Assembly: GCA_036274495.1 (NCBI GenBank)
Contig: DASUFP010000076.1
Coordinates: 8,367-72,366 of the forward strand
From: Bacteroidia bacterium
GTDB lineage: Bacteria; Bacteroidota; Bacteroidia; AKYH767-A; OLB10
DNA length: 64,000 bases
Direction: 5' to 3'
This document shows positions 1-30,952 of the stretch, in pieces (the stretch's first letter is position 1; each line of letters starts with the position of its first letter). Made by a program: the position numbers and the translations under genes. The notes beneath the pieces are model-generated. The model was not told the origin of the DNA. It did no database searches and saw only the letters and a list, made by a program, of their open reading frames with translations.

Positions 1-1760
1 ACATTGCGGTAGTATTTACGCATTCATTATTGAAATTAACCGTGTCGTCGGTCGACCAATTTTGGCATTTAAACTGAATGCCGGGCCACGAGCTAGTATA
101 ATTTGTCTCAAAATCAATGACTTGCGAATGAATCTCCTCCAAACAACCCCAAAAAAAGTTCGAACTCCTAAACATTAGATATAACTGACGCGATTTTTCA
201 TCATTTTGAAAATCCGGTGCATTTTCAACACAATTATAATCTGTTGAAATATAGGTAATTGCGGAAATAATCGGATTGATTTTCAGAGTTCGAAGTGTAT
301 GGTTTTCATGGATGTACTGTAAACCATCCGGAAAAACGAGATTTTGAAGCCTGACCTTTCCATTATAGTCTGATATCTGCCACATATTCAATAAATTAGA
401 AGCTAATTTAGTAGCTTTTTCAAGCATAATTTCCAAGTTAGAACCATTTGGAGCTAAGGATTTTAGACTTACTTCAATTTCGGTTATTTTCTTCCTGTGT
501 GACGCTGAATGCTTCTGAAAGAGTTCCGGAGTGATTTTACTGGTGGCCAAATTGAACTCCATTGTCTCCAGTTCGTTTTTCAATCGAGTAAGTTCGTCTT
601 TCATCGGTTTTTCCCTGGCTGTATCGCTGGCATGCAACATCACATGGGTAGCTTCCAGATGAGATATAATTACAGGAATCAGAGATGTCTTGATTGATAA
701 TTTCGAGAGTTCTGCAGTGAACAGATCATGCAACTTGAGATTCCTGATGTTAACGCAACACCCAGTATCAGGGCACTTGTAATAAACGTATTTGGACCTC
801 AGCGAGTAGGCTGTCAATGGACGATTGCAAGTACCACAACGAACCGATGCCTTTAGCGGCATTTCCTCATTTTCACGATTCATTTTCCAGCCATGACTAT
901 TTTTATTCAAGATGCCATTAACACGCAGGAAAAGCTCTTCACTGACGAGAGGCTCATGTTTTCCACGAACTATTTCGCCATCATCCAGTAATGTGTTCGT
1001 AATATAGCCAGCATAAAAAGGATTTCTAAAAATTTGAGACAGCCGCTGTGGAGTTAGGTGTAGGCCCATTTTTTTAAGCCTGTCAATGATTTCTGTATAG
1101 TTAAGATTTTCACGGTCTTTCCAATGAAACGCCTGTCTCAGTTTAATGCCATCATCATTGATAAAACATTGGGGCTTGTCCAGTATATGCTCTTTTTTTC
1201 CTGTTACATATCTTTTTTCGTAACCAGTGGTTGGATGTCCAATCCATTCACCCCGTCGTAATTTGTTACGCTGTCCCAAAATGATTCTGTCACGCCGTTG
1301 GTCATTTTCCCATTTAGCGAAAAGCACAAATAAACTCTGCGAAAACTGACCACTTGATGTCTCGTCATCCACTCTTTGCCTGACAGAATGAACTCTGATT
1401 CCTTTTTCCCGAAGTTGCTTGAGCAATCCAACATCACCTGACCTTGTAAATCGATCATAGTTGTGAACGACTATATGCCCTATGTTCTCTTGCTCACAAA
1501 AAGCCAACATTTCCTTAAACACTTTACGATCATCGGTTTCAGCTGACTCTTTTACGAGATAGGTTTTTATAATTTCAAAATCAAACTCTCTACAAAGATT
1601 CACGCATTCAGCATCCTGCTGCTCAAGAGTATCTTGTTTTTCAGACGAGCAACGATTGTAAATGACTGTCCTTTTGTTTTCAGACGATTTGTTACTTGTG
1701 CACTTTACAGCAAATTGCTTTAAATAATTTGAGTAATTTGTATTTCCAGTTGTATTCATG
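1..1760 (-). CDS. Large serine recombinase, 5' part only; start codon at 1760 and the C-terminus lies beyond the left edge of the window. Not in the supplied ORF track.
   Basis: Manual translation of the reverse strand from the ATG at 1760 gives an unbroken reading frame of more than 586 codons. It begins MNTTGNT...VIYNRCSSEKQ, which is the catalytic-Ser motif of resolvase/serine recombinases. It continues IVVHNYDRFTR, the second resolvase motif, and later has a Cys-rich ribbon CGTCNRP...YYKCPDTGCCVN typical of the large serine recombinase zinc-beta-ribbon. The listed ORFs 509..697(+) and 1204..1458(-) are in other frames inside it. Confidence 0.8.
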
Positions 1761-1795: not shown

Positions 1796-1981
1796 TCACT
1801 TTTTATCAACTACATTTTTAGTAGCCGCATCATAAAGTATCAACGAAAACTCCTTCAAAAAAGCAGCAACTTCCTTCAATTCGTCATCCGAATATTTATC
1901 CATTCCCGGAAAGGATCGCAACTGTTCATGAGTAAGTATATGCTCGGATTGTAAAAAATTATTATTTGCGATTTTCGACAT
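1796..1981 (-). CDS. Small hypothetical protein (61 aa) between the serine recombinase and the DUF2779-like gene; possible recombinase accessory factor.
   Basis: ORF track; position only, no recognisable motif. Confidence 0.3.
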   Translation of the reverse strand: MSKIANNNFLQSEHILTHEQLRSFPGMDKYSDDELKEVAAFLKEFSLILYDAATKNVVDKK

Positions 1982-1987
1982 TGTAAA

Positions 1988-3994
1988 TTATTGCATTTTT
2001 GCTCTCCACCCCTCCAGTAACATTACCATAGCCAATGTATCCAACTCGCAATAACGCAATAGACTATCGTGAATGCTTTTACGTTGTTCAACCGGTATTT
2101 CAGAAAACTGAAGATAGTTGTATGCAGTCATTGCAGTACCGCCATCGGCTAGCTCATCCATGTCTTTAACGAGCAGATCAAGAGTATCCTGGTCATAATC
2201 ATCAAATACTCGCGGCAGAGTTTTGTAGGGATTGTAATTTGTTTCAGGTGTTATCCAAACATGATCGTCAAAGTTCAAACTCCGAACTTCTTTATTTTTA
2301 CCATACACCCCGGCTTTCCCATATTTACTCTTCAAATAATCGCTTTCAGCAATGATGGCCGGAAGAATTTGTTTAAGTGAGTTGCTGCCTTTAGCTGCTG
2401 GCGAATAATAATATTGCAAGACCAGTTTATATAAATCAATCATATCCCGTGGGCCGGAATGGTTTCTTGACTTTTCATGAGTGATTGTATCAATAAAACT
2501 CATTAATTCCTTTTTATCAGCGGGCGCATCTTTGCTGGAATTTAGTTGCCAGTAAATCATGTTCAGGAAAGTATTTTCATGATTGTGGTACCGGAATACA
2601 CTTCCATTATCTTTTTTTAATGCATTTTTCAATTGTCGCACAAATTCAAAATTTGGAAATGTACCAGGTTCAAATGATAGAAATTGCGTTTCATGTCGAA
2701 CATTATAGTCTTTGTCAATAATATGATGGGAAAACTGAAAGGCGACACCTTCATAAGGTTTCATTCCTTTAAAAAAAGGAACAGCTACGGCCGAGGTTTC
2801 AAAGTCAATCATGTGCAATGGGAATGTCCAGGTATCCATTTCCCTTTTCAGACCTTCGGCATCAAAATAACTCTCACGTTCATTTTGTTTTACCCGATTC
2901 ACCTGTTCCATTCGACGTGAATGAGGTGTTAAACCGGGCAAAATGCTTGTTGATTTACCGGAAGGAATTATATCAGATTCTTCAATTTCATGAATAAAGT
3001 GTTTATTTTTTTTGACAAGTTCTGAAGTAAAATTTCTGGGACCGGCCAGACCATTCCATAATTCAGTAACTAATTCCATTTCAATTTTATCTGATCCTAT
3101 TGCCTTTTGCCAGCATTCAATAAAACCATCGCGCATATGGACAGGATCATCTTCATCAGTATAAAATTGACAGGCTTTACATTTTGAGCCGAGTGGGGTG
3201 GTGGTTTGCACATCATTTGTATAAATATCAGCTGTTTTCCAAACAAAATCTTCAAAACTGATATTTTCTATTAAATCTGTAGGTACTGGAAATTCGGTTT
3301 CAATTTTATCACAAATTTCATCCACGGGGACTGGAATCAATATTTGTGCTCCCAGGTCCTTTCGTTGTAGACCATCTTTTGAAATTATTTTAATGCGGCC
3401 GGCATTTGAATATACTTTAAAAAACTGAAGTAATCCATCAATATCGGTTGTGGCATCCTTATTTACAAGTATCAGATGCGTTTTGATTTTGAAATCATGA
3501 CCTGCTAATGCATTCGTAATTACATACCTCTGAAATGCGATATCATAAAGATATTCCACCCATTTTGACATCACGGCAGTGCCTTTGGCATTCAGGAATC
3601 GTTCTTCTTGGTCGAATGATTTTGCTTTTACTTCATAAATCTTAATCAAATTGTCCTCACGAACCAGCAAATCTACTCGGATAAATAAATTTTTATAACG
3701 AAACGCTGCTTCTGCAATTACGACACGGCCCGGCAATTTTAAACGCCTCTTTGTTTCTGTCACGGCCGCCTCATAGTCCAATGTGTCAATTGTGATCGAT
3801 TCATTGGCAGGGTCCTCACAGAAATAATATTTCGCGAGTTCTCCGACCTGGTAACCACCCTTGGCTAATGCAAGGAGAAATTCATCATCAAGATTTTTAT
3901 CCGCGTAAACGGACATTTTTCCGGTATAAAATAGCTTGCTTACACATTCAAGGGCCTGTTTAAATCTCGATTTTGTAAGATATCTGTTTTGCAT
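1988..3994 (-). CDS. DUF2779-like two-domain nuclease: N-terminal PD-(D/E)xK (RecB/Cas4-like) domain and C-terminal DnaQ/DEDD-like exonuclease-fold domain.
   Basis: N-terminus has FIRVDLLV...IYEVKAKS (a D...E-V-K arrangement) followed by AFQRYV, which resembles the QxxxY motif. C-terminal half has HMIDFETSAVAVPF...AFQFSHH, resembling the Exo I D-x-E motif of an RNase H-fold exonuclease. 668 aa. Confidence 0.5.
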   Translation of the reverse strand: MQNRYLTKSRFKQALECVSKLFYTGKMSVYADKNLDDEFLLALAKGGYQVGELAKYYFCEDPANESITIDTLDYEAAVTETKRRLKLPGRVVIAEAAFRYKNLFIRVDLLVREDNLIKIYEVKAKSFDQEERFLNAKGTAVMSKWVEYLYDIAFQRYVITNALAGHDFKIKTHLILVNKDATTDIDGLLQFFKVYSNAGRIKIISKDGLQRKDLGAQILIPVPVDEICDKIETEFPVPTDLIENISFEDFVWKTADIYTNDVQTTTPLGSKCKACQFYTDEDDPVHMRDGFIECWQKAIGSDKIEMELVTELWNGLAGPRNFTSELVKKNKHFIHEIEESDIIPSGKSTSILPGLTPHSRRMEQVNRVKQNERESYFDAEGLKREMDTWTFPLHMIDFETSAVAVPFFKGMKPYEGVAFQFSHHIIDKDYNVRHETQFLSFEPGTFPNFEFVRQLKNALKKDNGSVFRYHNHENTFLNMIYWQLNSSKDAPADKKELMSFIDTITHEKSRNHSGPRDMIDLYKLVLQYYYSPAAKGSNSLKQILPAIIAESDYLKSKYGKAGVYGKNKEVRSLNFDDHVWITPETNYNPYKTLPRVFDDYDQDTLDLLVKDMDELADGGTAMTAYNYLQFSEIPVEQRKSIHDSLLRYCELDTLAMVMLLEGWRAKMQ

Positions 3995-4026
3995 TCGAGG
4001 ATGGGTTGTAAAAAGTGAAGGTAAAA

Positions 4027-4650
4027 TTATTTTCGTTTTACATAAAAGAATAATAAGATATCGGGTGTTTTCATAATAAAGAATTTGTATATTTCTTCTG
4101 CATGTGTAACATCGATTGTATAAAAGGATGCTTCCTTTGAATAATTATGGACGTACTGTTCTTCAAGCAGAGTCTGACCAGTTATGGTTGCCTCAAAAAA
4201 TTCTCTATTTGTTTCTGACAGAAAAATAAAACAGGTTGGAAGAATACTCACAAATCTTTCATAATAAAACGAATCTTTTCCGGCTATAAATGGAGTGAAA
4301 GGTTTGGAATTATTTTTCATGGCGAAATCAAGTAGATGGTCGTTGTAGATTTGCTCGCGCTTTTGCGCTTCCAGATCGGTATGATGGTACATTTTACAGT
4401 TTTGAATTCCTTGGATTGTCGTCACATTTGACAAAATATCCTGAATAATAATCAGTTCATCTTCCGGAGTGGTATCAGATGAGTTTAATTTTTCAATTGC
4501 TATTTTCATTAGAGGATGTTTTTCGAATTCAATTTCTATTGCACAATTAAAACTAAGCCAGGATGCGCAATCAATATTGACCATTTCCAATTTTAAAATG
4601 GAATCGCCTTTTTCATTATGTGTGAAATAGCTTTGTAGTTCTACATTCAT
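4027..4650 (-). CDS. Hypothetical protein (207 aa), middle gene of a three-gene minus-strand operon.
   Basis: ORF track. Its start shares the ATGA overlap at 4650 with the upstream gene's stop, and its own stop is 32 bp from the downstream gene. No recognisable motif. Confidence 0.45.
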   Translation of the reverse strand: MNVELQSYFTHNEKGDSILKLEMVNIDCASWLSFNCAIEIEFEKHPLMKIAIEKLNSSDTTPEDELIIIQDILSNVTTIQGIQNCKMYHHTDLEAQKREQIYNDHLLDFAMKNNSKPFTPFIAGKDSFYYERFVSILPTCFIFLSETNREFFEATITGQTLLEEQYVHNYSKEASFYTIDVTHAEEIYKFFIMKTPDILLFFYVKRK

Positions 4651-5951
4651 TATTTTCGAGATTTAAGTTTTGTATTACTTTTTGTTTTGGTTTCAATTGG
4701 ATCACCGGCCGTTAGTTCCAGTTGTCTGATTGATTTAACTGCACTTCCGGCGATTCCCCGAATGGATGAGTAAATGTGGGTAGCATTCAATATCACTTTT
4801 TCAATTTCTTTCTGCCGTTGCTTCCAGATTGCATCCATTGCCCGCTTTTCGTTTAAAAGGTTTTTCTGCATTGTTGTAAATGCCTCAACTATGGCTTCCA
4901 TCTGCATCCGGAATTCATTACTCACCATGTATTCATATATGATTTCCATTTTGCTACCTTTATCTGATTGTGCTGTTTTCACGTCATTTAGTCGGATGAG
5001 ACTTTCACGTAATACATAACATAGTCCTTTTGCTTCCTCCCGTGAACATATCCAAATACCTTCCATCAGAGATAACCTCTCAACACCTTTCGGATATGTT
5101 TCCGTAACAAGAACGCCGATGTCAGCATTCCGGGCCCTCATGTCGGCCTTAAATTTGGGAATCCATGATGGCTGGAAATCCTTGGTTCGTTTGGTTTCAT
5201 AGTATATGGACCCGCAATTATGTTGCATAGTCGAATGGACAAAATGAATGCTGTCGCCACCTTTTGTACCTTTTTTGATTTCTTCGATGGTATCCATTGG
5301 AAAACATTGCCTGAGATAATCTTCTAGATTGGTCTCCATCACTTCACCTCGCAGTTGGCCTGAACCTTGGTCAGCTTTGCGCGATGCCTCGGTTAGTTGA
5401 GTTTTCAATTGCTGAATTACATGTTCCTTTTCCGCGACAAGCAATTCGTTTTTTGACTCCAAATCCTTTCTGATTTTTTTACGTTCCTGTTCGATTTCAG
5501 CTGTGATTCTTAATTCAGCTTCTGCTTCAATTTTTTCTTTTAGCGCTGTTTTTTCTCGATGAAGTTTTTGAAAATCTGCCTTGAGCTTGTTGAGTTCTTT
5601 TACTTCTTTCACTTTTTCATCCAACTGTTCCTTATAAGAATTAAGTTCATCGGACTTTTCAACCTGTAGTTGTTCCCGGATCATCTTTTCCTGTTTCACA
5701 CGTTCCGTGGAGAGACATTTATTAACTCCCAGCATTATCGCAGTATCGATTTCTGACTTCAGTTTTAATATTTCGGATTTCTCATGTTCTAACTTTACAT
5801 TTTTTTGCTCCAGTTCTTTTCTATCTTGTGCGAGTTTCTCATTCAATTGCCTGGAAAGCTGGGAATACATCTGAGTGTATAGAATTTCATTGACATTTAT
5901 AGCCTCATTGCATTGGGGACAGTTTATTGTGGTTTTTTCCATTTTATTCAA
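4650..5951 (-). CDS. DUF2130-like protein: N-terminal CxxC...C zinc ribbon, a long coiled coil, and a conserved C-terminal domain.
   Basis: Begins MNKMEKTTINCPQCNEAIN, a zinc ribbon. About 200 aa of E/K/L/Q-rich heptad-like sequence follows. C-terminal domain contains ADIGVLVTETYPKG, where acidic residues and a lysine could form a nuclease-like site. The family assignment is from memory. Confidence 0.5.
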   Translation of the reverse strand: MNKMEKTTINCPQCNEAINVNEILYTQMYSQLSRQLNEKLAQDRKELEQKNVKLEHEKSEILKLKSEIDTAIMLGVNKCLSTERVKQEKMIREQLQVEKSDELNSYKEQLDEKVKEVKELNKLKADFQKLHREKTALKEKIEAEAELRITAEIEQERKKIRKDLESKNELLVAEKEHVIQQLKTQLTEASRKADQGSGQLRGEVMETNLEDYLRQCFPMDTIEEIKKGTKGGDSIHFVHSTMQHNCGSIYYETKRTKDFQPSWIPKFKADMRARNADIGVLVTETYPKGVERLSLMEGIWICSREEAKGLCYVLRESLIRLNDVKTAQSDKGSKMEIIYEYMVSNEFRMQMEAIVEAFTTMQKNLLNEKRAMDAIWKQRQKEIEKVILNATHIYSSIRGIAGSAVKSIRQLELTAGDPIETKTKSNTKLKSRK

Positions 5952-6111
5952 ATTTAGTAACGCAAAGGTATGATATAATCATTGAAATAACCAACGATTA
6001 AATCAATGTTTTTAACATATATTTTATATATGATTGATTTACAATCATATAATTTTCGCTTTTATGTTCATTATTAGCTAAAAAGTTTTCGGAAATGAAG
6101 TGTTAAAAAGA

Positions 6112-6119
6112 TATTTTTG
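6112..6119 (+). promoter_or_regulatory. Candidate Bacteroidota -7 promoter element (TAnnTTTG) for the plus-strand defense operon, inside the divergent AT-rich intergenic region 5952-6136.
   Basis: TATTTTTG lies 18 nt upstream of the ATG at 6137. The same 185-bp AT-rich region must also carry the promoter of the divergent minus-strand DUF2130 operon. Confidence 0.3.
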
Positions 6120-6136
6120 TAAAATCTGATTTAACA

Positions 6137-6334
6137 ATGGCACAGAAAGTAAAAAAGGAAATAAAAGGAGGTGTCCGGAAAGGAGCAGGAAGAAAACCAG
6201 TGGCAGATCCAAAAGTGATGGTACCACTTTATATTGAAACATCAATAATTAGTGCCTTAGGAGGATTGGAAGAGGTGCGGAGTGCTTGTTATTCATTCAT
6301 AAGGTCCAAAATTGACAATAAAAAGCAAAATTGA
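6137..6334 (+). CDS. Small basic protein (65 aa), possible DNA-binding regulator and first gene of the plus-strand operon.
   Basis: ORF track. Contains GGVRKGAGRKPV, a basic AT-hook-like stretch. Ends 9 bp before the next gene. Confidence 0.35.
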   Translation: MAQKVKKEIKGGVRKGAGRKPVADPKVMVPLYIETSIISALGGLEEVRSACYSFIRSKIDNKKQN

Positions 6335-6343
6335 AGTATACAA

Positions 6344-7222
6344 ATGAAGGCTAAAAATAGTGTTGAAATTTCCCAGTCGCCAAAGCCGACGTTTTCAGGC
6401 CATGATTCGTTTGAATGCCGACAATTCTGGCTTAAGAAGGGATTTGATCATTTAATGGTCGAAGCAAAGTTCAATGATGAAGCAGTAGTTCCACTAGGTG
6501 TCGGACGAAATATGGTAAACGCGATTCGGCATTGGATGAAATCATTTGGTATGATAGATCAACACGATAAACTAACTGATTTTTCAAGAATAATATTTGG
6601 AAAAAAAGGATTTGATCCATATTTGGAAGATGAATCCTCCTTATGGCTCCTTCATTTTCAACTTGTGACAACTGAATTTGCTTCTCTTTACGGTTTAATT
6701 TTTAATGAATTCAGAAAACAAAAGCCCGAATTTACTAAAGAACATATAGTGCGTTTTATACTGACAAAATATCCAGGTTTCAATGAGAATACCATTGGTA
6801 AGGATTTTGAAACATTCACCAGAATGTATATTCCAAAAAGCAATGAAGCAGAAGAAAATTATGATGGAATCTTATCAGAATTAAATCTTGTTGAAGAAAT
6901 AAAGAAGAACATTTATGTTATCAAGAATGAAGATCGCCAACGAATCCCAGCAGAGATTATTTTGTATTGCATACTTCAGCAATCGAATAAAAAATCATTT
7001 GATTTCGAAAGCTTGCTGCTTGACAAAAATAGTGTGGGGTCAGTTTTCGCTCTAACAAAACAAGGGCTTGCAGATAAACTTGAGGAATTAGGCGAAAATT
7101 ATAAAAGGGAAGGCATTGTATTTAGTAACCATGCCGGAATCCGAGAATTACAGTTCAAGAAAACCTTGCCGTCTCCCAAAGAATTTTTAACGAATTACTA
7201 TAATCAAACTTATGCCGGTTAA
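6344..7222 (+). CDS. DUF4007-like protein (SspB-like candidate).
   Basis: 292 aa. Its stop overlaps the start of the large ATPase, with the PAPS-reductase-like gene next, which is the gene order of SspB-SspC-SspD modules. The call rests on context plus a vague sequence recollection; I have not verified the domain. Confidence 0.4.
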   Translation: MKAKNSVEISQSPKPTFSGHDSFECRQFWLKKGFDHLMVEAKFNDEAVVPLGVGRNMVNAIRHWMKSFGMIDQHDKLTDFSRIIFGKKGFDPYLEDESSLWLLHFQLVTTEFASLYGLIFNEFRKQKPEFTKEHIVRFILTKYPGFNENTIGKDFETFTRMYIPKSNEAEENYDGILSELNLVEEIKKNIYVIKNEDRQRIPAEIILYCILQQSNKKSFDFESLLLDKNSVGSVFALTKQGLADKLEELGENYKREGIVFSNHAGIRELQFKKTLPSPKEFLTNYYNQTYAG

Positions 7223-10200
7223 ATTCTCACCTTCAATCAATATTATTCGAGATACTGATCGTCAGTTCCGGTATGTTGTTACACAAAATGCTTCCAATAC
7301 AATTCAGCAGGTTATTGATGATTTTCATTTTGGATTTCATAGCAATATTATTATTGGTAGTTATGGAACGGGAAAATCCGCACTTTTAAAAGCATTTGAA
7401 CAATCACTTAAAGGCGAATCAAAGTATTTTAATGTTTCATCATTAAAAGTAAAACCATCAGCTGTTAAATTTATACGGTTCATTGGCGAGTATGAATCCA
7501 TCATACAATCGTTTGCTGACCATTTTGGCATAAAAAAGGTATCCAGTGGCCACCAGCAAATTTTTGATGCAATCTTTCAGGAATATGAAGAAGTTCGAAA
7601 GAATGGAATACTTGTAATATTCATTGATGAATTTGGAAAGTTCTTGGAATACGCTTCACAGAATCAAGTTGAAAAAGAACTTTATTTTATACAGCAACTT
7701 GCTGAATTTGTAAACGATCCAGATAGGAATATTTTTCTAATAACAACACTTCATCAGAATTTTGAAGCCTATTCTTCACGATTGGACGTTAATCAGCGGA
7801 ATGAGTGGAAAAAAGTTAAGGGTCGATTCAAAGAAATTACTTTTAATGAACCTGTAGAGCAATTATTGGCTTTAGCATCCTCAGTTATCAACAGCACTCC
7901 TGATAAAAAGCAAATAAAGAAGATACAAGAGCTTAACAAAATCTTCACTCAAAATTCTTTATTTAAGATAAATAGAGATTTTATAAACCAAATTAGTTCA
8001 AAGCTTTTTCCGCTAGATTTTATAACTGGTTGTTGTGCTACAAGAGCATTGCAAGAGTACGGTCAGAATGAACGCTCATTATTTACTTTCATTGAATCGA
8101 GAGATTTTCATAATTTGATTCGTGATAATCGTATCGCAAATCTTTCTTGGCTTTATGATTATTTGTTTTTGAATTTTTATTCATTTTTAAATTCAAAACA
8201 TAATGTACATTTCAATGGATGGTCAGATATAAAGGATTGCATTGAACGCGCTGAGACCGTATTGGTAAAGCACGTTGAGGAAGCTATAGCTATTATCAAG
8301 ACAATTGGCTTGTTGAGTATTTTTACAAATAAAGGAGCGAAAATAAATGAGGAATTTCTGATATCTTATTCCGCAACAGCATTAGATGTCTCGTCCGTAC
8401 CAGAAATTTTGAAGCAACTAAGTGCTCACAAAATTATAAAGTACAGTCGCTTCAATGATTCATTCAGGTTATTCCAAGGTACAGACGTTGATATTGACAA
8501 GGCATTAAATGATGAGGACAAAAAAGTTGAAAAAATTCGTGATGTTGCTTTGTCACTTAATAAGCATTTTGGTGCCATGCCTGGCGTTACCGCAAAGGAA
8601 GTCACCTACAAAACTGGAACAACACGCACTTTCAAATTTGATATTTCTGAAATTCCTAAAATTTTAAAAGCAACCGATGAAATTGACGGATATATAAACC
8701 TTGTAATTTCCGAGCATATATCAGAAATTCAATTGAAGGAACATTCTTCAAAGGATCGCGAAGCTAATCTTTATGGATTGTTTGGAAACTCCAAGAAGAT
8801 TAAATTTCACTTGCATGAGATTGAGAAGGCTCAAAACGTAAAAATGAAAAATACAGATGATAAAATTGTGCAGAAAGAGATGGAAATCATCATCAACAGT
8901 AATAAAAACTTACTGCATCATTATTTCATTGATGAAATATATTCTGATAGCGTCACATGGTTCTATAATGGGAAAAAGTTAAAGATTTCTAACAAAAGAA
9001 TGTTTAACCAGGCACTCTCCGAAATTGCTGCTAAAATTTATCCACTGACCCCTGTATTTAAGAATGAGCTTGTTAATCGCCACAAGATATCCTCATCAAT
9101 TCATACAGCTAGGAAAGATTTCTTTAATCATCTTGTGAATAATTGGAGTGAACCAAAATTAAGTTATGATGATAACTTTCCACCTGACAAAACTATTTAC
9201 ATTTCACTATTACTTGAAAATGGTATACACAAAGCTATAAAGGGAGGATTTGGACTTTATGGCCCGTCCAATCAATCTTCATTCGCGCCGGTGTGGGAAG
9301 CATGTGATGAATTTTTGAGATCAACTAAGCACGGTAAACGTCCGATATCTGAATTATATGACTTACTCTTGAGTAAACCTTACAAATTAAAACTTGGCTT
9401 GGCCGAATTTTTGATCCCAACATACTTGTTTGTAAGAAGAGATGATTACGCCTTGTTTGGAAAAAATGGTTTTATACCGGAAATGAATGAAACCACTTTA
9501 TTGCTTTTTGCCCGCAATGCTGAAGAATATATGATTAAAGCATTTGATTTGGATGGTGTAAAAATAGATTTGTTCAACAAATATCGGGAGTTATTGAAAT
9601 TGAAACCTGAACTCAATCCAACGAACGAGGATTTTATTCATAGTATTAAACCGTTCATGACATTTTACAGACAGCTTCCGGAATATTCAAAATTTACCAA
9701 AAAAGGTTTATCATCAGAAGCGCGTGCTGTACGCGATGCTATTATTAATTCTACTGATCCTGAAAAAACATTCTTTGAAGATTTTCCTGGGGCCCTGCAT
9801 CATACAACTAATGAATTAATAAAATCAAAAAAAGCATTACAGGAATATGCAGAACAACTAAAATCGGTAATTAATGAAATACGATCTGCACATGATGAAT
9901 TAATAAACCGGTTTGAAAAATTCATTTGTATTGATATTGTTGGCACTGAAATGGATTTTCAAGAATACCAGGAATTATTGCAAAAGCGTTTTAAGAATAT
10001 TAAGGACCATCTGCTCTTAAATTATCACAAATCTTTCTTAATGAGAGTAAACTCGCCATTGGACGACAAAAAATCTTGGCTATCATCAGTGGCCCAATCT
10101 TTAATTGGAAAATCCTTAGAAACAATAAAGGATGATGAAGAAAATATTTTGAAAGACAAATTTCGGACTATTGTGCATGAATTGGATAATTTCGTGGAGG

Positions 10201-10418
10201 TATCAGCAATCAAAGCTGATTCGGCCAGGGAAAAAGTTTTTAAGTTTGAAGTGACTGGCGAAAAAATGGTACACAAAACTTTTGTAAAAATTCCAAAAAC
10301 AAAATATTTAGAATTGGATAATATCGAACAGCAAATTAAGAAAATATTGAAAAAGGATAGACAATTAAATATTGCAGTTTTGACAAAGATTATTGAGGAG
10401 CAATTAAGAAATGAATAA
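7212..10418 (+). CDS. Large P-loop NTPase (1068 aa), SspC-like candidate.
   Basis: Walker A GSYGTGKS at about aa 50 and Walker B ILVIFIDEFGK at about aa 135. This compact spacing argues against an ABC/SMC-type ATPase. About 900 aa of unassigned sequence follow. Start and stop both overlap the neighbouring genes (7212-7222 and 10411-10418). Confidence 0.6.
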   Translation: MPVKFSPSINIIRDTDRQFRYVVTQNASNTIQQVIDDFHFGFHSNIIIGSYGTGKSALLKAFEQSLKGESKYFNVSSLKVKPSAVKFIRFIGEYESIIQSFADHFGIKKVSSGHQQIFDAIFQEYEEVRKNGILVIFIDEFGKFLEYASQNQVEKELYFIQQLAEFVNDPDRNIFLITTLHQNFEAYSSRLDVNQRNEWKKVKGRFKEITFNEPVEQLLALASSVINSTPDKKQIKKIQELNKIFTQNSLFKINRDFINQISSKLFPLDFITGCCATRALQEYGQNERSLFTFIESRDFHNLIRDNRIANLSWLYDYLFLNFYSFLNSKHNVHFNGWSDIKDCIERAETVLVKHVEEAIAIIKTIGLLSIFTNKGAKINEEFLISYSATALDVSSVPEILKQLSAHKIIKYSRFNDSFRLFQGTDVDIDKALNDEDKKVEKIRDVALSLNKHFGAMPGVTAKEVTYKTGTTRTFKFDISEIPKILKATDEIDGYINLVISEHISEIQLKEHSSKDREANLYGLFGNSKKIKFHLHEIEKAQNVKMKNTDDKIVQKEMEIIINSNKNLLHHYFIDEIYSDSVTWFYNGKKLKISNKRMFNQALSEIAAKIYPLTPVFKNELVNRHKISSSIHTARKDFFNHLVNNWSEPKLSYDDNFPPDKTIYISLLLENGIHKAIKGGFGLYGPSNQSSFAPVWEACDEFLRSTKHGKRPISELYDLLLSKPYKLKLGLAEFLIPTYLFVRRDDYALFGKNGFIPEMNETTLLLFARNAEEYMIKAFDLDGVKIDLFNKYRELLKLKPELNPTNEDFIHSIKPFMTFYRQLPEYSKFTKKGLSSEARAVRDAIINSTDPEKTFFEDFPGALHHTTNELIKSKKALQEYAEQLKSVINEIRSAHDELINRFEKFICIDIVGTEMDFQEYQELLQKRFKNIKDHLLLNYHKSFLMRVNSPLDDKKSWLSSVAQSLIGKSLETIKDDEENILKDKFRTIVHELDNFVEVSAIKADSAREKVFKFEVTGEKMVHKTFVKIPKTKYLELDNIEQQIKKILKKDRQLNIAVLTKIIEEQLRNE

Positions 10419-11529
10419 AATTAGACACGTATTAGGAATTTCTGGCGGTAAGGATAGTGCAGCTCTTGCTATTTATCTGAATTTAAAATACCCTCAGTTG
10501 AACATTGACTACTATTTCTGTGATACAGGAAAGGAATTGCAAGAAACGTACCTGTTAATTGAACGGCTTGAAAGTCTTCTTGGAAAGAGCATAACAACGC
10601 TAATTGCGGAAGATGCAAAGCAAAACCCCTCTGATAATCCATTTGATCACTTTTTTAAGATATATCGGGGCTACCTTCCTTCTTCAACTGCTCGATGGTG
10701 CACAAAGAAATTAAAATTAGAACCTTTTGAAAAATACGTAGGTGAATCGCCTGTTATTTCATATGTCGGTATTCGTGGCGACGAAAACCGAGAAGGGTAT
10801 ATTTCAAAAAAGTCAAATATTCAATCTATATTTCCTTTCAGGAAGAATATATGGAGTGAAGATGTAATTAATAAAGTGATGCATCCGACAAACAATGAGT
10901 GGCTTATGGATGTATATTCTAGCTTAATGTCGGGACGCAAGCTTGATAAAGTTAATTCGGCCATATTTTCTAGTATTTCTTCTGATGTAGAAAAAGCAAA
11001 AAGGTTATCTGACTTGTTGGACGTTGGCGTTGTTGAGTTCAATAAAGCTGTTTTCAGCTTTATGAAAAATACTGATTATCCGCTGGCTTTAGAAGAAGAT
11101 TTTCCGTTGCTTGAAAATGACGAGGTGCTCGTGAGAGAGGATATATTCAGGATATTACGAGAGAGTGGAGTAGGTGTACCAGAGTACTACGAAAAAATAA
11201 AGTACGAGGTAGATGGTAAAAGCAGTGAATACGCTCGCAGTCGGTCCGGCTGTTACTTTTGTTTCTTTCAGCAAAAAATTGAATGGATTTGGCTGTATGA
11301 ACAACACCCAGATCTTTTTGAAAAGGCCATGCAGTATGAAAATGAAAAAGAAGGCTTTACTTGGAACCAACACGAGAGCCTGGATGATCTGATTCAACCA
11401 TCCCGTATGGAACAGATAAAACGTGACCACCTTTTAAGAAAAAACAAAGAGAAATCAATAAAGTCACCATACCTTTTGGATATTTTGGATGATACTGAAA
11501 GCGATGGATGTACAGCTTGTTTTATTTAA
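10411..11529 (+). CDS. PAPS-reductase-family PP-loop ATP pyrophosphatase (DndC/SspD-like).
   Basis: N-terminal PP-loop LGISGGKDSAAL (the SGGxDS motif). Also RWCTKKLKLEPF, the R(W/F)C motif of the PAPS reductase/DndC family, and a C-terminal Cys pair CYFCFF. 372 aa. Confidence 0.65.
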   Translation: MNKIRHVLGISGGKDSAALAIYLNLKYPQLNIDYYFCDTGKELQETYLLIERLESLLGKSITTLIAEDAKQNPSDNPFDHFFKIYRGYLPSSTARWCTKKLKLEPFEKYVGESPVISYVGIRGDENREGYISKKSNIQSIFPFRKNIWSEDVINKVMHPTNNEWLMDVYSSLMSGRKLDKVNSAIFSSISSDVEKAKRLSDLLDVGVVEFNKAVFSFMKNTDYPLALEEDFPLLENDEVLVREDIFRILRESGVGVPEYYEKIKYEVDGKSSEYARSRSGCYFCFFQQKIEWIWLYEQHPDLFEKAMQYENEKEGFTWNQHESLDDLIQPSRMEQIKRDHLLRKNKEKSIKSPYLLDILDDTESDGCTACFI

Positions 11530-12653
11530 AACTAATTATGGAATATTATTTAAAGGAATACTCTATTCAAGAAGTTTTTCAATTGGTTGATAAAAATCTA
11601 ATTGATTTAAGCCCGGCATATCAAAGAAATTTCATTTGGTCTCCGGATAATCAAAAGGAATTAATTGATACGATTTTAAAAGATTACCCCTTACCAAGTT
11701 TCTTTTTTTATGAAAAAAAAGATAAGACTTTTGAAATGGTTGACGGGCAACAACGAACGAAAACTATTATCCGTTTCATCCAGGGATTTATTACCTCTTC
11801 TAAGGAATTTGATAGGGTGACGTTTGATAGAATTGATCAGGAGAAGTTTTTGAATTATAGAATATCTGTAATAATTATAAAGACTTTACAAAATGAGAGT
11901 CTATTAAAAGAATTTTATGTATTAATAAATAAAAAAGGCGTTCACTTAAATATTGCCGAGGTCAATAAATCTGAATTTTTTGACACTAACTTTATGAAGT
12001 TAGCAAATGAGCTTTTATCATATCAAAATTTAATTAATCTTGACTTGTTTTCCGAAGCTGTTGTAAAAAGAATGAATGATAGATCATTTGTTGAGGAATT
12101 GCTCGCATATCTTTATAGTGGTACAAAAGAAAAGCGCAAATCAGTAGAAAATGTTTTTAAAACTGATATAAGTGACGGCGATTATAAATATTTAGATAAT
12201 CAATTTAAGAGAGTTATCGACAAGATTGAAACACTCAACAGAATATCGCCGATTAGTGAAACAAGATATAAACAAAAAAATGATTTTTATACGCTTTTCT
12301 CTTTTATAAATGAGAATATTGATAGCAATATGGATTTGCTTAACTTTCAATATGCAATTCTGCTATTTATAGATGGAAATGATAAGGAAGGAAGACAAAT
12401 GATTAGACCATCAAATTCTGAATGTGAGGCTTTTAGGGAGTATGCAAACAATTGTATCACGCAATCAAATTCCAGAGCAGCTAGAGAAAATAGACTGAAA
12501 TTTTTTAATGCATTATTAAAGAATGAATCAACTCAAAACAATGAAATTCTAATAAGTGTGCTTGATTATTTATCCTCACTTTATGGAAACGACAAAATAT
12601 CGTTAAAAAAGATTAACGGCTACGAGTTGTTGGATGTAGAAAGGATCAAATAA
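11508..12653 (+). CDS. DUF262 (ParB/GmrSD N-terminal-like) domain protein without a DUF1524/HNH C-terminus. The true start is probably the ATG at 11538 (MEYYLKEY...), immediately after the upstream stop.
   Basis: Textbook DUF262 motifs: AYQRNFIW and VDGQQRTKTI (the DGQQR motif). 381 aa. Confidence 0.7.
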   Translation: MYSLFYLKLIMEYYLKEYSIQEVFQLVDKNLIDLSPAYQRNFIWSPDNQKELIDTILKDYPLPSFFFYEKKDKTFEMVDGQQRTKTIIRFIQGFITSSKEFDRVTFDRIDQEKFLNYRISVIIIKTLQNESLLKEFYVLINKKGVHLNIAEVNKSEFFDTNFMKLANELLSYQNLINLDLFSEAVVKRMNDRSFVEELLAYLYSGTKEKRKSVENVFKTDISDGDYKYLDNQFKRVIDKIETLNRISPISETRYKQKNDFYTLFSFINENIDSNMDLLNFQYAILLFIDGNDKEGRQMIRPSNSECEAFREYANNCITQSNSRAARENRLKFFNALLKNESTQNNEILISVLDYLSSLYGNDKISLKKINGYELLDVERIK

Positions 12654-12660
12654 TTGAGTT

Positions 12661-13689
12661 ATGAATTTTAATTTTCCTGATAATAAACTCATTGATAAAG
12701 GTACGATTTGCAACCGGATTGGTACATCGACTTTTGGAGAGCTTATAAATATTGCAATTCCAGTTGATAACCAAATTTCAATAGATGGAACTGATTTTTA
12801 TTTTACATATTTGAAAGGAGCTGATCCTGGTAATAAAGGCGGTAATTCTATAATTTTGAACTTGTATGCTAGCCAGGAAATTGATTTGGACAATTTAGAG
12901 TATGGTGTACCAGACCTTGTATTAAAAATTTCAAAATTTAGAAATTCGATTAATCCGTTATTTCCAAATAAAAAGCAAAAGCGATTTGAAAAAGAAATTG
13001 AAGCTTTAAGAAAATGTAATGATGAGCCGTTTCAAAATGTTATCAAGATTTTTCATAATGGTATATGTAAAATTAAAAGCTCAAATAATAGATTTTACGA
13101 TGAGCACTTATACTACACGATGGAGTATGCAGAATACGATTTAAAAAGTTATATAGAAGCAAAACATGATGAACTTTCATTGGATGAGAAATTATCATTA
13201 TGTATTAGTATTTGTGAGGGACTCAAAGAGTTATACTCATTAGAATATTATCATAGAGATATAAAACCTGATAATATATTTATGATAGATGGGTTGTGGA
13301 AAATAGGCGATTTGGGACTGGTAGCTGAGCGTAACAATTCTGATGAAATTGATGGAGTGGCAGAAAAAATAGGGCCGATTGGATGGTTGTCGCCAGAATC
13401 GATGAATAAATATCTTTGTGAGGGGAAAGGATTTAAGTTTAAACATGATTTTATTATCGATCATCAATCAGATATTTTTCAACTAGGAAAAGTCTTTTGG
13501 TATATTTTCCAAAATAATGCCCCAGTGGGATCAATAAAAATCTCGGATTTTTTAATTAAACAAAGTAATTTATATTCAGTATTAAGAACTATGTTGAATC
13601 ATTCTAAAAGAAGACGGTTCAAAAATGTAGAAGAGGTAATAAGAATTATGAAAATAGTTGAGAAGAAAATTCTTATGGTTACAAATTAA
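12661..13689 (+). CDS. Eukaryotic-type Ser/Thr protein kinase domain protein, last gene of the plus-strand operon.
   Basis: Catalytic loop YHRDIKPDNIF (the HRDxKPxN motif). KIGDLGL stands in the DFG position. GPIGWLSPE is APE-like. IGTSTFGEL is glycine-loop-like, LVLKISK is a candidate beta3 lysine, and MEYAEYD is hinge-like. 342 aa. Confidence 0.65.
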   Translation: MNFNFPDNKLIDKGTICNRIGTSTFGELINIAIPVDNQISIDGTDFYFTYLKGADPGNKGGNSIILNLYASQEIDLDNLEYGVPDLVLKISKFRNSINPLFPNKKQKRFEKEIEALRKCNDEPFQNVIKIFHNGICKIKSSNNRFYDEHLYYTMEYAEYDLKSYIEAKHDELSLDEKLSLCISICEGLKELYSLEYYHRDIKPDNIFMIDGLWKIGDLGLVAERNNSDEIDGVAEKIGPIGWLSPESMNKYLCEGKGFKFKHDFIIDHQSDIFQLGKVFWYIFQNNAPVGSIKISDFLIKQSNLYSVLRTMLNHSKRRRFKNVEEVIRIMKIVEKKILMVTN

Positions 13690-13698
13690 AGAATGTAT

Positions 13699-16092
13699 TT
13701 ACTCTTCGAGTACACCCATCAGCTGTTCCATTCCAAAATTTAGCAAGAAGTCGGAGTAGTAACTGTCGAAAACATCGCGGATATATTCATCAACAGTAAT
13801 TTCTTCGAGTTTATCTCCTTTTGGAATAGTTAATGCATATTTTCTACGTTTAGTAATCATGTACAGAAAAAGTGTATGGAAATACACAGAGGAGAGATAG
13901 CGTTTTTGTGCAACTACGATTTGATCCTCTGATTTAAGGTTTTTTCTATGGTTTAAAAATACATTACTATCAAGATTGATATAAACTTTTTCAAGTTTAT
14001 CACCTTCACCAACTGGGAACATTACTGTTTCGTGGCTCATTGATATGCCATGCTCTTCCATTTGTTGCCACTGTTCCTTATGTACACGTTTCAATTCCGG
14101 CAAACCAATGTTTTCTAATTCTTCCTCTTGTTTCGGAGCCTTTTCCATTGGTGCTTCTGGTTGTACAATCTTTACAAGCAAAATTTGATTCTGCGCTTCT
14201 CCTGGCGCTGTAAGCGAAATATTTATTTCAATTTCATCACCAACTTTCAATTCATGTGTTGGATTCAACGAAAGTTTGATAGTTCCTTTATTTGGACTGC
14301 TTTTTACGATATTCAGGTACTCTGAGATTTCTTTTTTATTACCTGGTTCATCACCACCTTTAGCAATATTTCTTTTAATTTTCAACAACGCTAATTGCAA
14401 CTCACCTGGTTCTTCAACTCTGTCAAAATAATCATTATCAACGTCAGTTTCAAACTTGATGATTTTTTCACCATTCAATGGAAGATTGATTGCATTTGTG
14501 TTTCCTTTGTTTCCAAGAAGGTTAAAAAAGGTAGGAAAACGTTTTGAATTGAATGGTTTTTCTTCTCGTTCTGCTTTTGGTCTTTGACCATCCTGACGTT
14601 GATTGGTTTCTTTTTTCTCTTCCAACTTAAGTGTGTTTTGTAGTAGTTTAAACAATTCACTATCCTTTGGAAGATTTTTAGCGAATGATTTTATTAACTC
14701 AGAAGTGTCTTCACTTTCCAAGCCAATAGACTCTTTACGATGTCTGTTGATTTCATCTAATTGGCTTTTACGAAGTTTTTTACCAAGATAATCCCTGAGC
14801 ATCAAGGATTCATCACCCCCTTTTAATCGCTCACGATCACTCATGAATAATTCTTCTCGGAAATCTGCTTTCATTTCAGTGCAATCGCAGTGAATCAATA
14901 AGTAATCCTTTAACAGGTTAAATTTTAAAGTTCGTGTAACAAATTCCGAAGTATAACTCCCCTGAACTTGGCCGTTCACAGAAAACATTACAGACATATT
15001 ATTTCTGAAGAATCTGTCACCTATAATTTTTTTTGATTCTTTTACATTACGTTTATCAAGTTTTGGTTTGAAAACATAGCATGTAACTTTAGCTTTACCA
15101 AAATGCTCATCAAAATATTCTTCAGAGAAAAAGCTTTCAACATAGTCATTTTTATCCTCTTCTAGCCTTCTCTTCAGGCCATACAAATCTAATTCAAGTA
15201 CTTTATTGTTCGGGTAACGTTCTTTTTTATCAACTGTATAAATTGGTAATACAGGTTCAAAAAGATATTCATTTAAACTTTGATTTAAATCTTGTGCAAA
15301 GCCTGAGTAGCCTGATGGAAATTGATAAGAAAATAGTTTAATTACCGTACCAGTCTTGAACTTCCTCCCATGTAATTTCAAATCCATCTCACCAGAATCA
15401 AAAGATGGAATCATTCCATCAATTTTCAGATATTCAAAATAGCTGAATCGCCTGGCATCATTTGCCTCACCTATTTTGCGTTGCCTACACAATGTAAAAC
15501 CAAATTTGCCTGTATTATCAAACCGCTTTGAACCAATAAGCTGGTAACGTTTTTTACCGCAAAAAACTAGTGCACCGCTTCCACCCATGTTATACTTTCC
15601 CTGGACAAAGTGAATATTTATTTTGTTACCGCGCACTAATGACAAAAAGGTATTTTCAAAATCTTGAGGATGTTGACCTTCACCATTGTCATAAATAATT
15701 ACAGAAGTGTTTCGAGTGGGGCCGTCAGCAACAATCTGTATTTCTTCTGCTTGTTTTCTTCTAAAAGATTGCAAGTCCCATTGAGTGTGATCAGGAAAGA
15801 ATTTGTTAATGGCCTGCTCCATTGTATGTGGTGCATCAGCAGAAGTGGGATTTATACCCAATTCAATACATTTTCGCATCAACAAGGCATCAATAGAATT
15901 AGTGACTTTCTCAACTAGTGCTGCAATCGGATTTGATTGTTGACCCCTAACAATTCCAAATAGTTTTTCATCTCCTCCAAACGGAGTCCAATTGTCATTT
16001 TTGAAAATGTCCGGATTGCTTTCTATTATTTCATCTACGGATTCTTCTGTTTGTGCAAAATACAATTGCTCAAAAATCTTTCTAAGTTGCAT
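13699..16092 (-). CDS. GHKL-superfamily (Bergerat-fold, HATPase_c-like) ATPase with a long uncharacterised C-terminal region (797 aa).
   Basis: N-box ALVEKVTNSIDA (the E-x-x-x-N-S-x-D-A motif), G1 box IIYDNGEGQ (DxGxG), G2 box GKYNMGGSGA. Convergent with the kinase gene; the two stop codons are 9 bp apart. Confidence 0.6.
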   Translation of the reverse strand: MQLRKIFEQLYFAQTEESVDEIIESNPDIFKNDNWTPFGGDEKLFGIVRGQQSNPIAALVEKVTNSIDALLMRKCIELGINPTSADAPHTMEQAINKFFPDHTQWDLQSFRRKQAEEIQIVADGPTRNTSVIIYDNGEGQHPQDFENTFLSLVRGNKINIHFVQGKYNMGGSGALVFCGKKRYQLIGSKRFDNTGKFGFTLCRQRKIGEANDARRFSYFEYLKIDGMIPSFDSGEMDLKLHGRKFKTGTVIKLFSYQFPSGYSGFAQDLNQSLNEYLFEPVLPIYTVDKKERYPNNKVLELDLYGLKRRLEEDKNDYVESFFSEEYFDEHFGKAKVTCYVFKPKLDKRNVKESKKIIGDRFFRNNMSVMFSVNGQVQGSYTSEFVTRTLKFNLLKDYLLIHCDCTEMKADFREELFMSDRERLKGGDESLMLRDYLGKKLRKSQLDEINRHRKESIGLESEDTSELIKSFAKNLPKDSELFKLLQNTLKLEEKKETNQRQDGQRPKAEREEKPFNSKRFPTFFNLLGNKGNTNAINLPLNGEKIIKFETDVDNDYFDRVEEPGELQLALLKIKRNIAKGGDEPGNKKEISEYLNIVKSSPNKGTIKLSLNPTHELKVGDEIEINISLTAPGEAQNQILLVKIVQPEAPMEKAPKQEEELENIGLPELKRVHKEQWQQMEEHGISMSHETVMFPVGEGDKLEKVYINLDSNVFLNHRKNLKSEDQIVVAQKRYLSSVYFHTLFLYMITKRRKYALTIPKGDKLEEITVDEYIRDVFDSYYSDFLLNFGMEQLMGVLEE

Positions 16093-21343: not shown

Positions 21344-21347
21344 CGCC

Positions 21348-28115: not shown

Positions 28116-28168
28116 GGCAGTATGATCTATGGTAAATAGTAAATGATTGAGATGAAGAAAAAAGAAGC

Positions 28169-28579
28169 TCAGTTGGCCAGAAACTGATAATATCCACTCC
28201 AGTTTCCAAAGTGATTTTTAATGCGCACGCGTGCGAAAAAGGCCGCTGGCGGAGTGAGTGTTCCTAAAGTCAGGTACACCTTGTCTCCCGTGCGATTCCA
28301 GTTCATTCCCGACGGCAATCCAGAAGAGTTGTCGTAAACAAAAGTCTGAGCCAGCAGATCCGTCATACCAGGTGCCGTGCCCAAACCTATTTCGAGCATG
28401 GCTACTGCATTGGTATCGGGTACCTGCACATAAAAAGTGCACGTTGACAACGAATCAAATGAGACGGTGGCATCAGTAGGTTTCTGAACGGTTTGGGCAG
28501 ATGTCTCTTTTACTGACAAAAGAATGATCACTGCAAGAACCCAGTAGAATCTGTTGCCGGTGTTTGGAAGGTTTTTCAT
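28169..28579 (-). CDS. Small secreted hypothetical protein (136 aa), probably co-transcribed with the giant gene.
   Basis: Signal peptide MKNLPNTGNRFYWVLAVIILLSVKETSAQ. Ends 54 bp before the start of the giant gene. Confidence 0.5.
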   Translation of the reverse strand: MKNLPNTGNRFYWVLAVIILLSVKETSAQTVQKPTDATVSFDSLSTCTFYVQVPDTNAVAMLEIGLGTAPGMTDLLAQTFVYDNSSGLPSGMNWNRTGDKVYLTLGTLTPPAAFFARVRIKNHFGNWSGYYQFLAN

Positions 28580-30902: not shown

Positions 30903-30952
30903 TTTAATTAAAATGCAAACGGAGAAAAATTATTTGCTCCGTTTATAATGTT

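Follow-up and report, generated by a model that had tools for sequence, protein, structure and literature searches.

The closest described relatives of the locus reported here are a family of two-nuclease proteins and a group of mobile defence platforms. DUF2779 was assigned to the RNase H-like proteins as family F.17, in the 3′–5′ exonuclease clade, where it is fused to a Cas4-like DUF83 domain (Majorek et al., PMC3985635), and the same Cas4-like plus DEDD fusion was recognised in MMSYN1_0389, a quasi-essential DUF2779 protein of the minimal cell JCVI-syn3.0 (PMC13621843, a 2026 paper). DUF2130 is listed as a PD-(D/E)XK family (PMC3424549). Defence platforms in which a conserved, recombinase-bearing module carries a variable defence region were described as pipolins (PMC11551731), SCCmec-linked cassettes (PMC11470126) and recombinase-associated defence loci (RADS, PMC13552941), and serine integrases accounted for less than 1% of the integrases in att-delimited genomic islands in one survey (bioRxiv 10.64898/2026.01.13.699239). 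The DUF2779 domain architecture, the PD-(D/E)XK nature of DUF2130 and the backbone-plus-cargo plan of defence platforms are thus published. The subject here is a DUF2779 operon in a 64,000-nucleotide stretch of the metagenome-assembled genome of a Bacteroidia bacterium (GCA_036274495.1, contig DASUFP010000076.1, positions 8,367 to 72,366), called the window throughout, where an earlier note, written from the letters and their translations, had proposed a three-gene defence cassette of DUF2130-like, hypothetical and DUF2779-like genes at 1796–5951.

The three genes stand at the promoter-proximal end of an operon of five (DUF2130, a 207-residue protein, DUF2779, a 61-residue open reading frame (ORF) and a large serine recombinase (LSR)), and this operon appears to form the backbone, conserved among relatives, of an integrative island ~20 kb long that extends from ~19.3–19.7 kb leftwards past the window start. 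The recombinase-bearing module and the variable defence region resemble those of pipolins, SCCmec-linked cassettes and RADS; the differences are that an LSR stands at one end here and a tyrosine recombinase at the other, that PolB, a Ccr pair and a small serine recombinase are all absent, that the invariant enzyme is the DUF2779 nuclease, and that the elements have so far been found mostly in metagenome-assembled genomes of Bacteroidota. The operon and its divergent neighbour are laid out as follows.

1..1759, minus strand: LSR, 612 residues in the source contig, the last 26 codons lying beyond the window start
1796..1981, minus strand: 61-residue ORF between DUF2779 and the recombinase, conserved in relatives
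1988..3994, minus strand: DUF2779 gene, 668 residues, Pfam PF11074
4027..4650, minus strand: gene of the 207-residue protein, which ends in an "X" domain; no family match
4650..5951, minus strand: DUF2130 gene, 433 residues from a TTG; gene callers start at the ATG at 5942 (codon 4), which gives 430 residues
5952..6136: divergent intergenic region with palindromes, putative operators/promoters for both operons
6137..6334, plus strand: gene of a 65-residue protein, the first of the cargo operon, conserved in sister elements

The ORF list bore out the tight packing of the three minus-strand genes and the gap of 32 nt at 3995–4026, between the genes of the 207-residue protein and DUF2779; four minus-strand ORFs in fact lie within 1796–5951, the 61-residue one having gone without mention before. 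The ATGA overlap claimed at 4650 has to be corrected: these letters are present, but the real junction between the DUF2130 gene and its neighbour is TAATG, in which the TAA stop and the ATG have one base in common. Towards the recombinase the gaps are 6 nt (DUF2779 to the 61-residue ORF) and 36 nt (from there to the LSR), all genes being on the same strand, and no terminator-like site was seen in the operon gaps leading to the LSR. The genes do diverge from an Ssp-like operon, as the note had it, the neighbours being SspB, SspC and SspD (PADLOC E 1.6e-95, 0 and 6.4e-94).

That this operon is a backbone follows from the comparison of contig loci (numbered with an L, L001 being the locus of the source contig), from which gene content, synteny, motif conservation and cargo turnover were read directly. 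Close DUF2779 relatives (63–78% identity) occur in ~10 distinct elements with a common layout, a divergent gene of ~60–65 codons being followed on the opposite strand by variable genes, then DUF2779, a small ORF and an LSR. The small ORF and the LSR were located 3′ of DUF2779 in 14 of 14 loci (~10 elements) that have a full or near-full match and a visible downstream flank; a contig with only the C-terminal third of DUF2779 (L134, 61% identity) is without the LSR, and none of the 79 more distant loci (58% identity or less) has an LSR beside DUF2779. Since the ~10 elements come from one ancestor, the link to the LSR represents conserved synteny and not ten independent events. The genes upstream of DUF2779 vary within this clade.

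Window, L002–4 and L005: DUF2130, 207-residue protein
L018: DUF2130, 207-like protein, X-domain protein, 133-like protein
L006/7 and L147: X-domain protein of 116–117 residues, DUF2130
L095/L148 and L149/150: X-domain protein of 121 residues, protein of 127–133 residues, no DUF2130

The 207-residue protein can be divided into an N-terminal domain (residues 1 to ~105) and the X domain (residues ~114–205, the C-terminal ~95), and the latter is constant within the clade because the proteins of 116–121 residues in L006, L147, L148, L149 and L018 are homologous to this C-terminal half; it is thus present in every backbone variant, and among the compared loci it was never seen outside the LSR clade. 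The constant parts of the clade are DUF2779, the LSR and the X domain, and DUF2130 is optional, being missing from two variants (L148, L149). A second X-domain gene was noticed downstream of the LSR at L147:14160–14525.

A self-contained, fixed three-gene cassette does not agree with these variants. The trio is confined to part of one clade (the window, L002–4, L005 and L018) and is lacking in four other backbone variants and in 111 distant loci; L148 and L149 are without DUF2130, and in L006 and L147 a short X-domain protein, standing in for the 207-residue one, precedes DUF2130. An autonomous anti-phage system of DUF2130, the 207-residue protein and DUF2779, with the recombinase and the cargo as mere neighbours, is improbable in our judgement, despite the tight packing, the setting in a defence island and the recurrence of the trio at 44–79% identity in L002, L005 and L018. 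Its middle protein does diverge fast (31–45% identity, compared with 63–74% for DUF2779), as would be expected of a specificity or target-facing subunit, but its family comprises only 10 clusters among 1.84 billion representatives in an exhaustive search, and its X domain is limited to the LSR clade. Likewise, DUF2130 and DUF2779 adjoin each other without an LSR in L019 and L120, but in most cases DUF2779 lacks a DUF2130 within 10 kb.

The LSR itself (Resolvase E 8.5e-22, Recombinase E 1.4e-10) is intact in the source contig (L001 12892–14730) and 50–65% identical to the recombinases at the same position in sister elements, which makes DUF2779, at 63–78%, the most conserved backbone protein. 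In one copy of a sister element the LSR is split into two ORFs of 103 and 461 residues (L002:12435–14088), and two further copies of that element have it intact, with 613 residues (L003:4434–6275). The higher conservation of the nuclease, the strict LSR linkage within the clade and the arrangement on one strand with gaps of 6 and 36 nt and no terminator-like site are also what would be seen if the nucleases served the life cycle of the island (DNA processing at or after LSR excision, establishment, cargo exchange) and not immunity. This is the main rival explanation, and we rate it as rather unlikely. A DUF2779 protein of 44% identity is encoded on the conjugative plasmid pPAES01 (L151, NC_011061.1 23656–25647), among SRAP (SOS-response-associated peptidase), zincin-like metallopeptidase, H-NS, thermonuclease and JAB genes. 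Such neighbours (SRAP, metallopeptidase, H-NS, thermonuclease, JAB) are typical of plasmid establishment regions, and staphylococcal cassette chromosome (SCC) elements, too, carry DNA-metabolism genes beside their ccr recombinases; both were counted in favour of a life-cycle role. By the established mechanism, however, strand exchange by serine recombinases requires no nuclease, homologues at 37–58% identity are found without an adjoining recombinase in chromosomal defence-rich regions, and the minimal element L018 showed no gene for replication, mobilisation or packaging.

The DUF2779 assignment of the 668-residue protein was upheld by Pfam (PF11074, E 1.8e-23, residues 394–539; 83.6 bits with a cut-off of 23.3, over the full profile, 1–126). 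Its reading as a protein with two nuclease domains, made from an RecB/Cas4-like and a DEDD/DnaQ-like motif, was likewise sustained in an alignment of 18 homologues at 54–100% identity, in which D108, E121-V-K123, Q155 and I-D397-F-E399-T-S are invariant. To these can be added, in the N-terminal half, E95 as a further Cas4/RecB-type residue and four invariant cysteines (C17, C272-x2-C275, C294) and, in the C-terminal half, the DEDDy-type series D397-x-E399, H470-N-H-E473-N, D520 and Y648-x3-D652, again invariant. Judged by these residues, the C-terminal half is a predicted DEDDy-type 3′–5′ exonuclease domain, with Exo I (D397-x-E399), further acidic residues (E473 and/or D520) and Exo III (Y648-x3-D652), and the N-terminal half is suggestive of a Cas4/RecB-like PD-(D/E)XK domain with four cysteines. 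The AlphaFold (AF2) model (predicted local distance difference test (pLDDT) 80, predicted template modelling score (pTM) 0.72) places the N-terminal motifs on three successive strands and the next helix. The top Foldseek matches in the PDB were Cas4–Cas1 (7mi4/7mi5), MGME1 and SSO0001 (4ic1), and since all of these have E values of 0.011 or worse, the likeness of fold is suggestive only. The invariant cysteines would fit a putative Fe-S cluster, in a model that is of low confidence at residues 268–290; the third and fourth are 18 residues apart, which we take to be longer than in Cas4.

When the protein is compared with MMSYN1_0389 and the other PF11074 fusions, the Pfam family and the plan are the same, i.e., an N-terminal Cas4/DUF83-like PD-(D/E)XK domain with D and E-x-K, and a C-terminal DEDD exonuclease in which a tyrosine replaces the histidine, whereas all four Cas4-type cysteines are found here and two in MMSYN1_0389, and this protein, unlike the published DUF2779 proteins, belongs to a serine-recombinase operon of a putatively mobile island. 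Compact members of the family, such as a 501-residue protein in L149, are ~24% identical. The order D..ExK..Q and the arrangement of one N-terminal and three C-terminal cysteines are shared with Cas4 and the AddB nuclease domain, but there is no helicase partner such as AddA, and Pfam and PADLOC scans of the ORFs in window 1–34 kb and of the called genes of related loci showed neither cas1 nor cas2 nor any further cas family (the scans did not extend to CRISPR arrays). In PADLOC-DB v2.0 there was no match for the 668-, 207- or 61-residue protein, and no solved structure was detectable by sequence for the DUF2130, 207-residue or DUF2779 protein. The earlier statement that no system of this architecture had been described therefore stands as far as PADLOC is concerned, which has no model for the three proteins, and fails for the two-nuclease architecture of DUF2779, which had already been published (PMC3985635; PMC13621843).

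Outside the clade, DUF2779 mostly stands alone, in surroundings that vary and are rich in defence genes (restriction-modification (R-M), HipA, IetA, integrases and the cyclic-oligonucleotide-based anti-phage signalling system (CBASS)), with no fixed neighbour. Relatives numbered 6956 in all, and close DUF2779 relatives were found, counting one genome per species, in at least 569 species of many phyla at 42–56% identity. The 141 nearest neighbours of 78 such genes represent 100 Pfam families, none of them occurring more than 5 times; the commonest are SMC/SbcC-type ATPases, HipA, phage integrases, and ResIII and UvrD helicases, and the PADLOC matches among the neighbours include IetA, LmuB, type III restriction endonucleases (REases) and RT-RmuC. 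One homologue (L153, 57% identity) lies beside two CBASS operons. On plasmids the gene is rare (24 of 72,556). A phage origin was considered and rejected: there was no PHROG match, none of 50,697 phage records contains DUF2779, and only three IMG/VR contigs do, at 41–44% identity. A single DUF2779 gene (P0102) in L010, L011 and L012 (~10001–12001) has a conserved left flank and three different right flanks, one of which holds a tyrosine integrase and insertion sequence (IS) genes; this suggests that the gene borders an integration hotspot.

The check for co-occurrence proposed in the earlier note gave a divided answer. DUF2130 and DUF2779 recur together in at least three gene orders and with two DUF2130 subfamilies, and 100 of 111 distant loci are without DUF2130 nearby; the remaining 11, in ~six lineages, have it within 10 kb. 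The note had named a failure of the genes to co-occur in other genomes as the finding that would speak against a cassette, and in part this is what was observed, since most DUF2779 genes have no DUF2130 nearby. The idea that DUF2779 is always paired with DUF2130 was rejected on the same genome scan. By our own estimate, the pairing is far above chance for a rare family, yet facultative. DUF2130 adjoins DUF2779 upstream in L019, without an LSR; in L120–L125/L129 another PF09903 subfamily lies directly downstream of DUF2779, i.e., in reversed order, again without an LSR in L120; and in L008 a methyltransferase gene lies between the two. This second subfamily had been missed by a narrow DUF2130 hidden Markov model (HMM) and was seeded separately. 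In the marine metagenome locus concerned (L120:10001–13263, also L121, L123, L124, L125 and L129) DUF2779 is 37–39% identical, DUF2130 is matched by Pfam at E 5.5e-87, and a pair of EcoRV endonuclease and D12 methyltransferase genes is adjacent.

In three other lineages (L033, L034, L152) the position of DUF2130, directly upstream of DUF2779, is taken by intact SbcD-like and SbcC-like genes, with SbcD at L033:6400–7524, L034:6380–7540 and L152:1–1122; the operon in L152 (58% identity) consists of SbcD-like, SbcC-like, DUF2779, NUDIX and PLD-helicase genes. Within the clade, an ORF of 127–142 codons directly upstream of DUF2779 (L148:9589–9990, L149:9605–9988, L018:9561–9989) aligns with the N-terminal ~110 residues of SbcD-like Metallophos proteins (blastp 4e-9, 2e-6); its GD and GNHD metal motifs are gone, and it therefore appears to be a dead SbcD remnant.

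The SbcD–SbcC–DUF2779 operons resemble repair operons, lone DUF2130 and DUF2779 genes are also found beside metabolic genes, and MMSYN1_0389 is quasi-essential in the minimal cell (PMC13621843), all of which would be accounted for if these genes belonged to ordinary DNA repair (as end-resection or recombination nucleases) and had come into the island by chance, without an island-specific or immune role. We consider this very unlikely, given the patchy distribution across phyla at 42–46% identity, the highly variable neighbours (141 of them fall into 100 Pfam families, and integrases, R-M and HipA come up repeatedly), the low G+C of the island, and the retention of the gene beside the LSR while all cargo was turned over.

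The upstream protein of the operon was correctly guessed to be DUF2130-like (PF09903, E 1.8e-64, residues 169–414; 217.9 bits with a cut-off of 26.7, profile positions 2–253 of 255). A CPxC at its N-terminus is followed by a long coiled coil (~residues 25–200) and a C-terminal PD-(D/E)XK-type domain, and in 15 sequences at 47–79% identity C8-P-x-C11, G199-E-V-x-E203, D217, D230 and E249-x-K251 are invariant. The C-terminal domain is predicted from these residues to belong to the PD-(D/E)XK superfamily, the E...D...(D/E)xK core being present as E200/E203, D230 and E249-x-K251. Of the "zinc-ribbon plus coiled-coil" description, the coiled coil was confirmed; a classical zinc ribbon is not present because the protein has a single cysteine pair where four ligands would be needed, and a second CxxC/CxxH pair is absent from both DUF2130 subfamilies. 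PADLOC gave only weak matches (E 2e-5 or weaker), of the coiled-coil region (residues 3–199) with internal segments of the DpdE and LmuB models. The lone CPxC was likened to the zinc hook of Rad50/SbcC, in which each of two chains contributes a single CPxC to one zinc, and RmuC also joins a long coiled coil to a PD-(D/E)XK domain. Compared with SbcCD/Mre11–Rad50, DUF2130 has no ATPase head, and its CPxC is N-terminal and not at the apex of the coiled coil; jackhmmer over the compared loci pulled in no RmuC or SbcC sequence. The likeness to SbcC and RmuC may serve as a lead.

The 207-residue protein, said to be without recognisable features, and the 61-residue protein indeed found no match in Pfam, NCBIfam, PHROGs or PADLOC. 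The former is no orphan: a word-indexed search returned only the protein itself, but the locus comparison and the exhaustive search found relatives at 31–46% identity, those in L002 and L005 being 44% identical. No fold could be assigned to its AF2 model (pLDDT 72), the best matches in the PDB (E 0.27) and BFVD (E 0.0095, probability 0.25, root-mean-square deviation 28 Å) not being meaningful. The 61-residue ORF has homologues at the same position in L002, L005 and L006 (34–43% identity) and HMM matches in L015 and L018; the motif "LKEFSLILY" is conserved in it.

On the other side of the intergenic region, the 65-residue protein is 53–75% identical to its counterparts at the same position in L002, L005 and L006 and is also found in L018, L095/L148 and L149; it matched no Pfam family, and the gene was not found in L147. 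In this protein an invariant basic GG-x-R-x-G-x-GRKP tail precedes a beta-alpha-alpha pattern, which recalls ribbon-helix-helix regulators, and it is putatively a DNA-binding regulator. The AT-rich region 5952–6136 contains the palindrome TGATTG-N5-CAATCA and CATTGAT..ATCAATG-like repeats, with a core that is partly conserved in seven elements, and these palindromes may be operators for the 65-residue protein. Its gene heads the cargo operon in 7 of the 8 elements whose upstream side is visible, and the cargo, co-oriented with it and lying beyond it, varies between elements.

Window: SspBCD, DUF262 protein, kinase
L002: ZorD/DpdE-like SNF2 helicase, NOV_C, D12 methyltransferase
L005 and L147: type I REase-like protein, TIR, MazG_C
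L006: SIR2-HerA
L148/L095: Druantia DruF/DruL-like protein and a 2049-residue helicase
L149: Rosmerta RmrA and type I R-M

The setting in a defence island, as first supposed, is thus supported by the SspBCD neighbours here and by other defence systems in the same slot of relatives. The backbone is not an additional Ssp module of the SspE or FGH type, as sister backbones adjoin cargo without Ssp genes. As to the Ssp cargo of the window, SspB–SspC–SspD occur without SspA, and together with a 381-residue DUF262-only protein (best PADLOC match NsnA, E 6e-26) and a Ser/Thr kinase (best match mad6) in place of a canonical SspE. The remainder of the island reads as follows.

6344..13689, plus strand: variable cargo of SspB, SspC, SspD, a DUF262/GmrSD_N protein and a Ser/Thr kinase (PADLOC and Pfam)
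13699..16092, minus strand: 797-residue HATPase_c_3 protein (Pfam E 6e-5)
16754–17506, minus strand: N6_N4 DNA methyltransferase (Pfam), far end of the island
17713–19302, minus strand: 529-residue tyrosine-recombinase-like protein (Pfam), far end of the island
From 19691: host Por_Secre_tail genes (Pfam)

The 797-residue protein has no PADLOC match and no tblastn counterpart in the other loci, and may be a candidate for an uncharacterised defence gene. The G+C content is 30–38% in the first 20 kb of the window and 43–47% in the rest, rising beyond ~20 kb. Host genes are found at both island ends in the window contig, where a sulfotransferase gene lies beyond the LSR, and in L018, and these host flanks are not the same from element to element. 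L018, a minimal version, measures ~10 kb and is located between host scpA and fpg/ku, comprising a tyrosine integrase, an Mrr-like gene, the 65-residue gene, the nuclease operon and the LSR; the integrase sits at the end equivalent to that of the 529-residue gene, whose sole Pfam match is Phage_int_SAM_5. The far-end genes of the window and L002 (L002:39–2448) are 81% (529-residue protein) and 70% (methyltransferase) identical and so more conserved than the LSR (54–55%), which suggests a mosaic history. The ends of the island and its mobility have been deduced from synteny, G+C content and differing flanks, since no attachment (att) repeats were found; the island ends of the window/L001 and of L018 share only strings of 10–12 nt, which is chance level. 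That the LSR element might have had DUF2779 as its target gene in the host was considered and rejected, the second DUF2779 in L149 being a full-length, 24%-identical paralogue and no fragment; the island copy is complete in every element that has the gene fully on the contig. The flank at 19691–34131 holds a run of very large Por_Secre_tail proteins (sorted by the type IX secretion system), one of 2255 residues at 21348–28115, and similar Por_Secre_tail genes also flank the sister elements L002 and L147.

The reading we favour, and which we regard as about evenly poised between right and wrong, is that of an island-encoded immunity, i.e., a DUF2779-centred module that degrades DNA ends, has swappable partners and became fixed in a mobile defence island. 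An immune role is favoured because the lone homologues are found in variable, defence-rich neighbourhoods and because the partners are shuffled as they are in defence systems. DUF2779, with a putative 5′–3′ Cas4/AddB-like nuclease and a putative 3′–5′ DEDDy exonuclease, would degrade both strands from free ends; DUF2130 would be one of several exchangeable partners that find or open such ends, a place that SbcCD-like proteins would take in other lineages, and the X-domain protein may act as a lineage-specific adaptor or regulator. The target would be linear or broken foreign DNA, and this immunity would travel with exchangeable cargo, the 65-residue gene heading the slot where defence systems are exchanged. 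The polarity of the nucleases, the cooperation between the proteins and the defence role are what we infer from the comparison. A further-reaching version makes DUF2779 the core of a widespread, undescribed immunity module with end-finding partners (DUF2130 with its Rad50-hook-like CPxC, or SbcCD-like proteins), of which one lineage has become the permanent core immunity of an unrecognised family of Bacteroidota serine-recombinase islands that swap defence systems at the slot behind the 65-residue gene; this we put forward tentatively, and it probably claims too much.

Several points weigh against an immune role as proposed. DUF2779 and DUF2130 are both experimentally uncharacterised families, and the fold matches of DUF2779 are weak, the best having E 0.011. 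A gene for constitutive defence would not usually be transcribed together with a recombinase, and the quasi-essential homologue of JCVI-syn3.0 (PMC13621843) points to DNA maintenance. The enrichment of defence genes near lone DUF2779 genes is qualitative, without a baseline; the ~10 elements share one ancestor; and the island ends (att sites) were not found in the window/L001 or L018.

In the searchable literature, neither the recurrent pairing of DUF2779 with DUF2130 nor that with SbcCD-like proteins was found, nor was the X domain, nor an island family that has an LSR and a tyrosine recombinase at opposite ends and one cargo slot. DUF2779 and DUF2130 are widely distributed families without an assigned function, and their conserved partnership offers a route to that function. 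If the island is mobile, as it appears to be, it would serve Bacteroidota as a compact natural vehicle, with one slot through which Ssp, Druantia, SIR2-HerA, Rosmerta and R-M systems travel; the contents of the slot would be candidates for new defence genes, and the family would give a view of how defence islands are assembled. If, alternatively, the nucleases serve the island, it would represent an unusual serine-recombinase element that depends on a nuclease.

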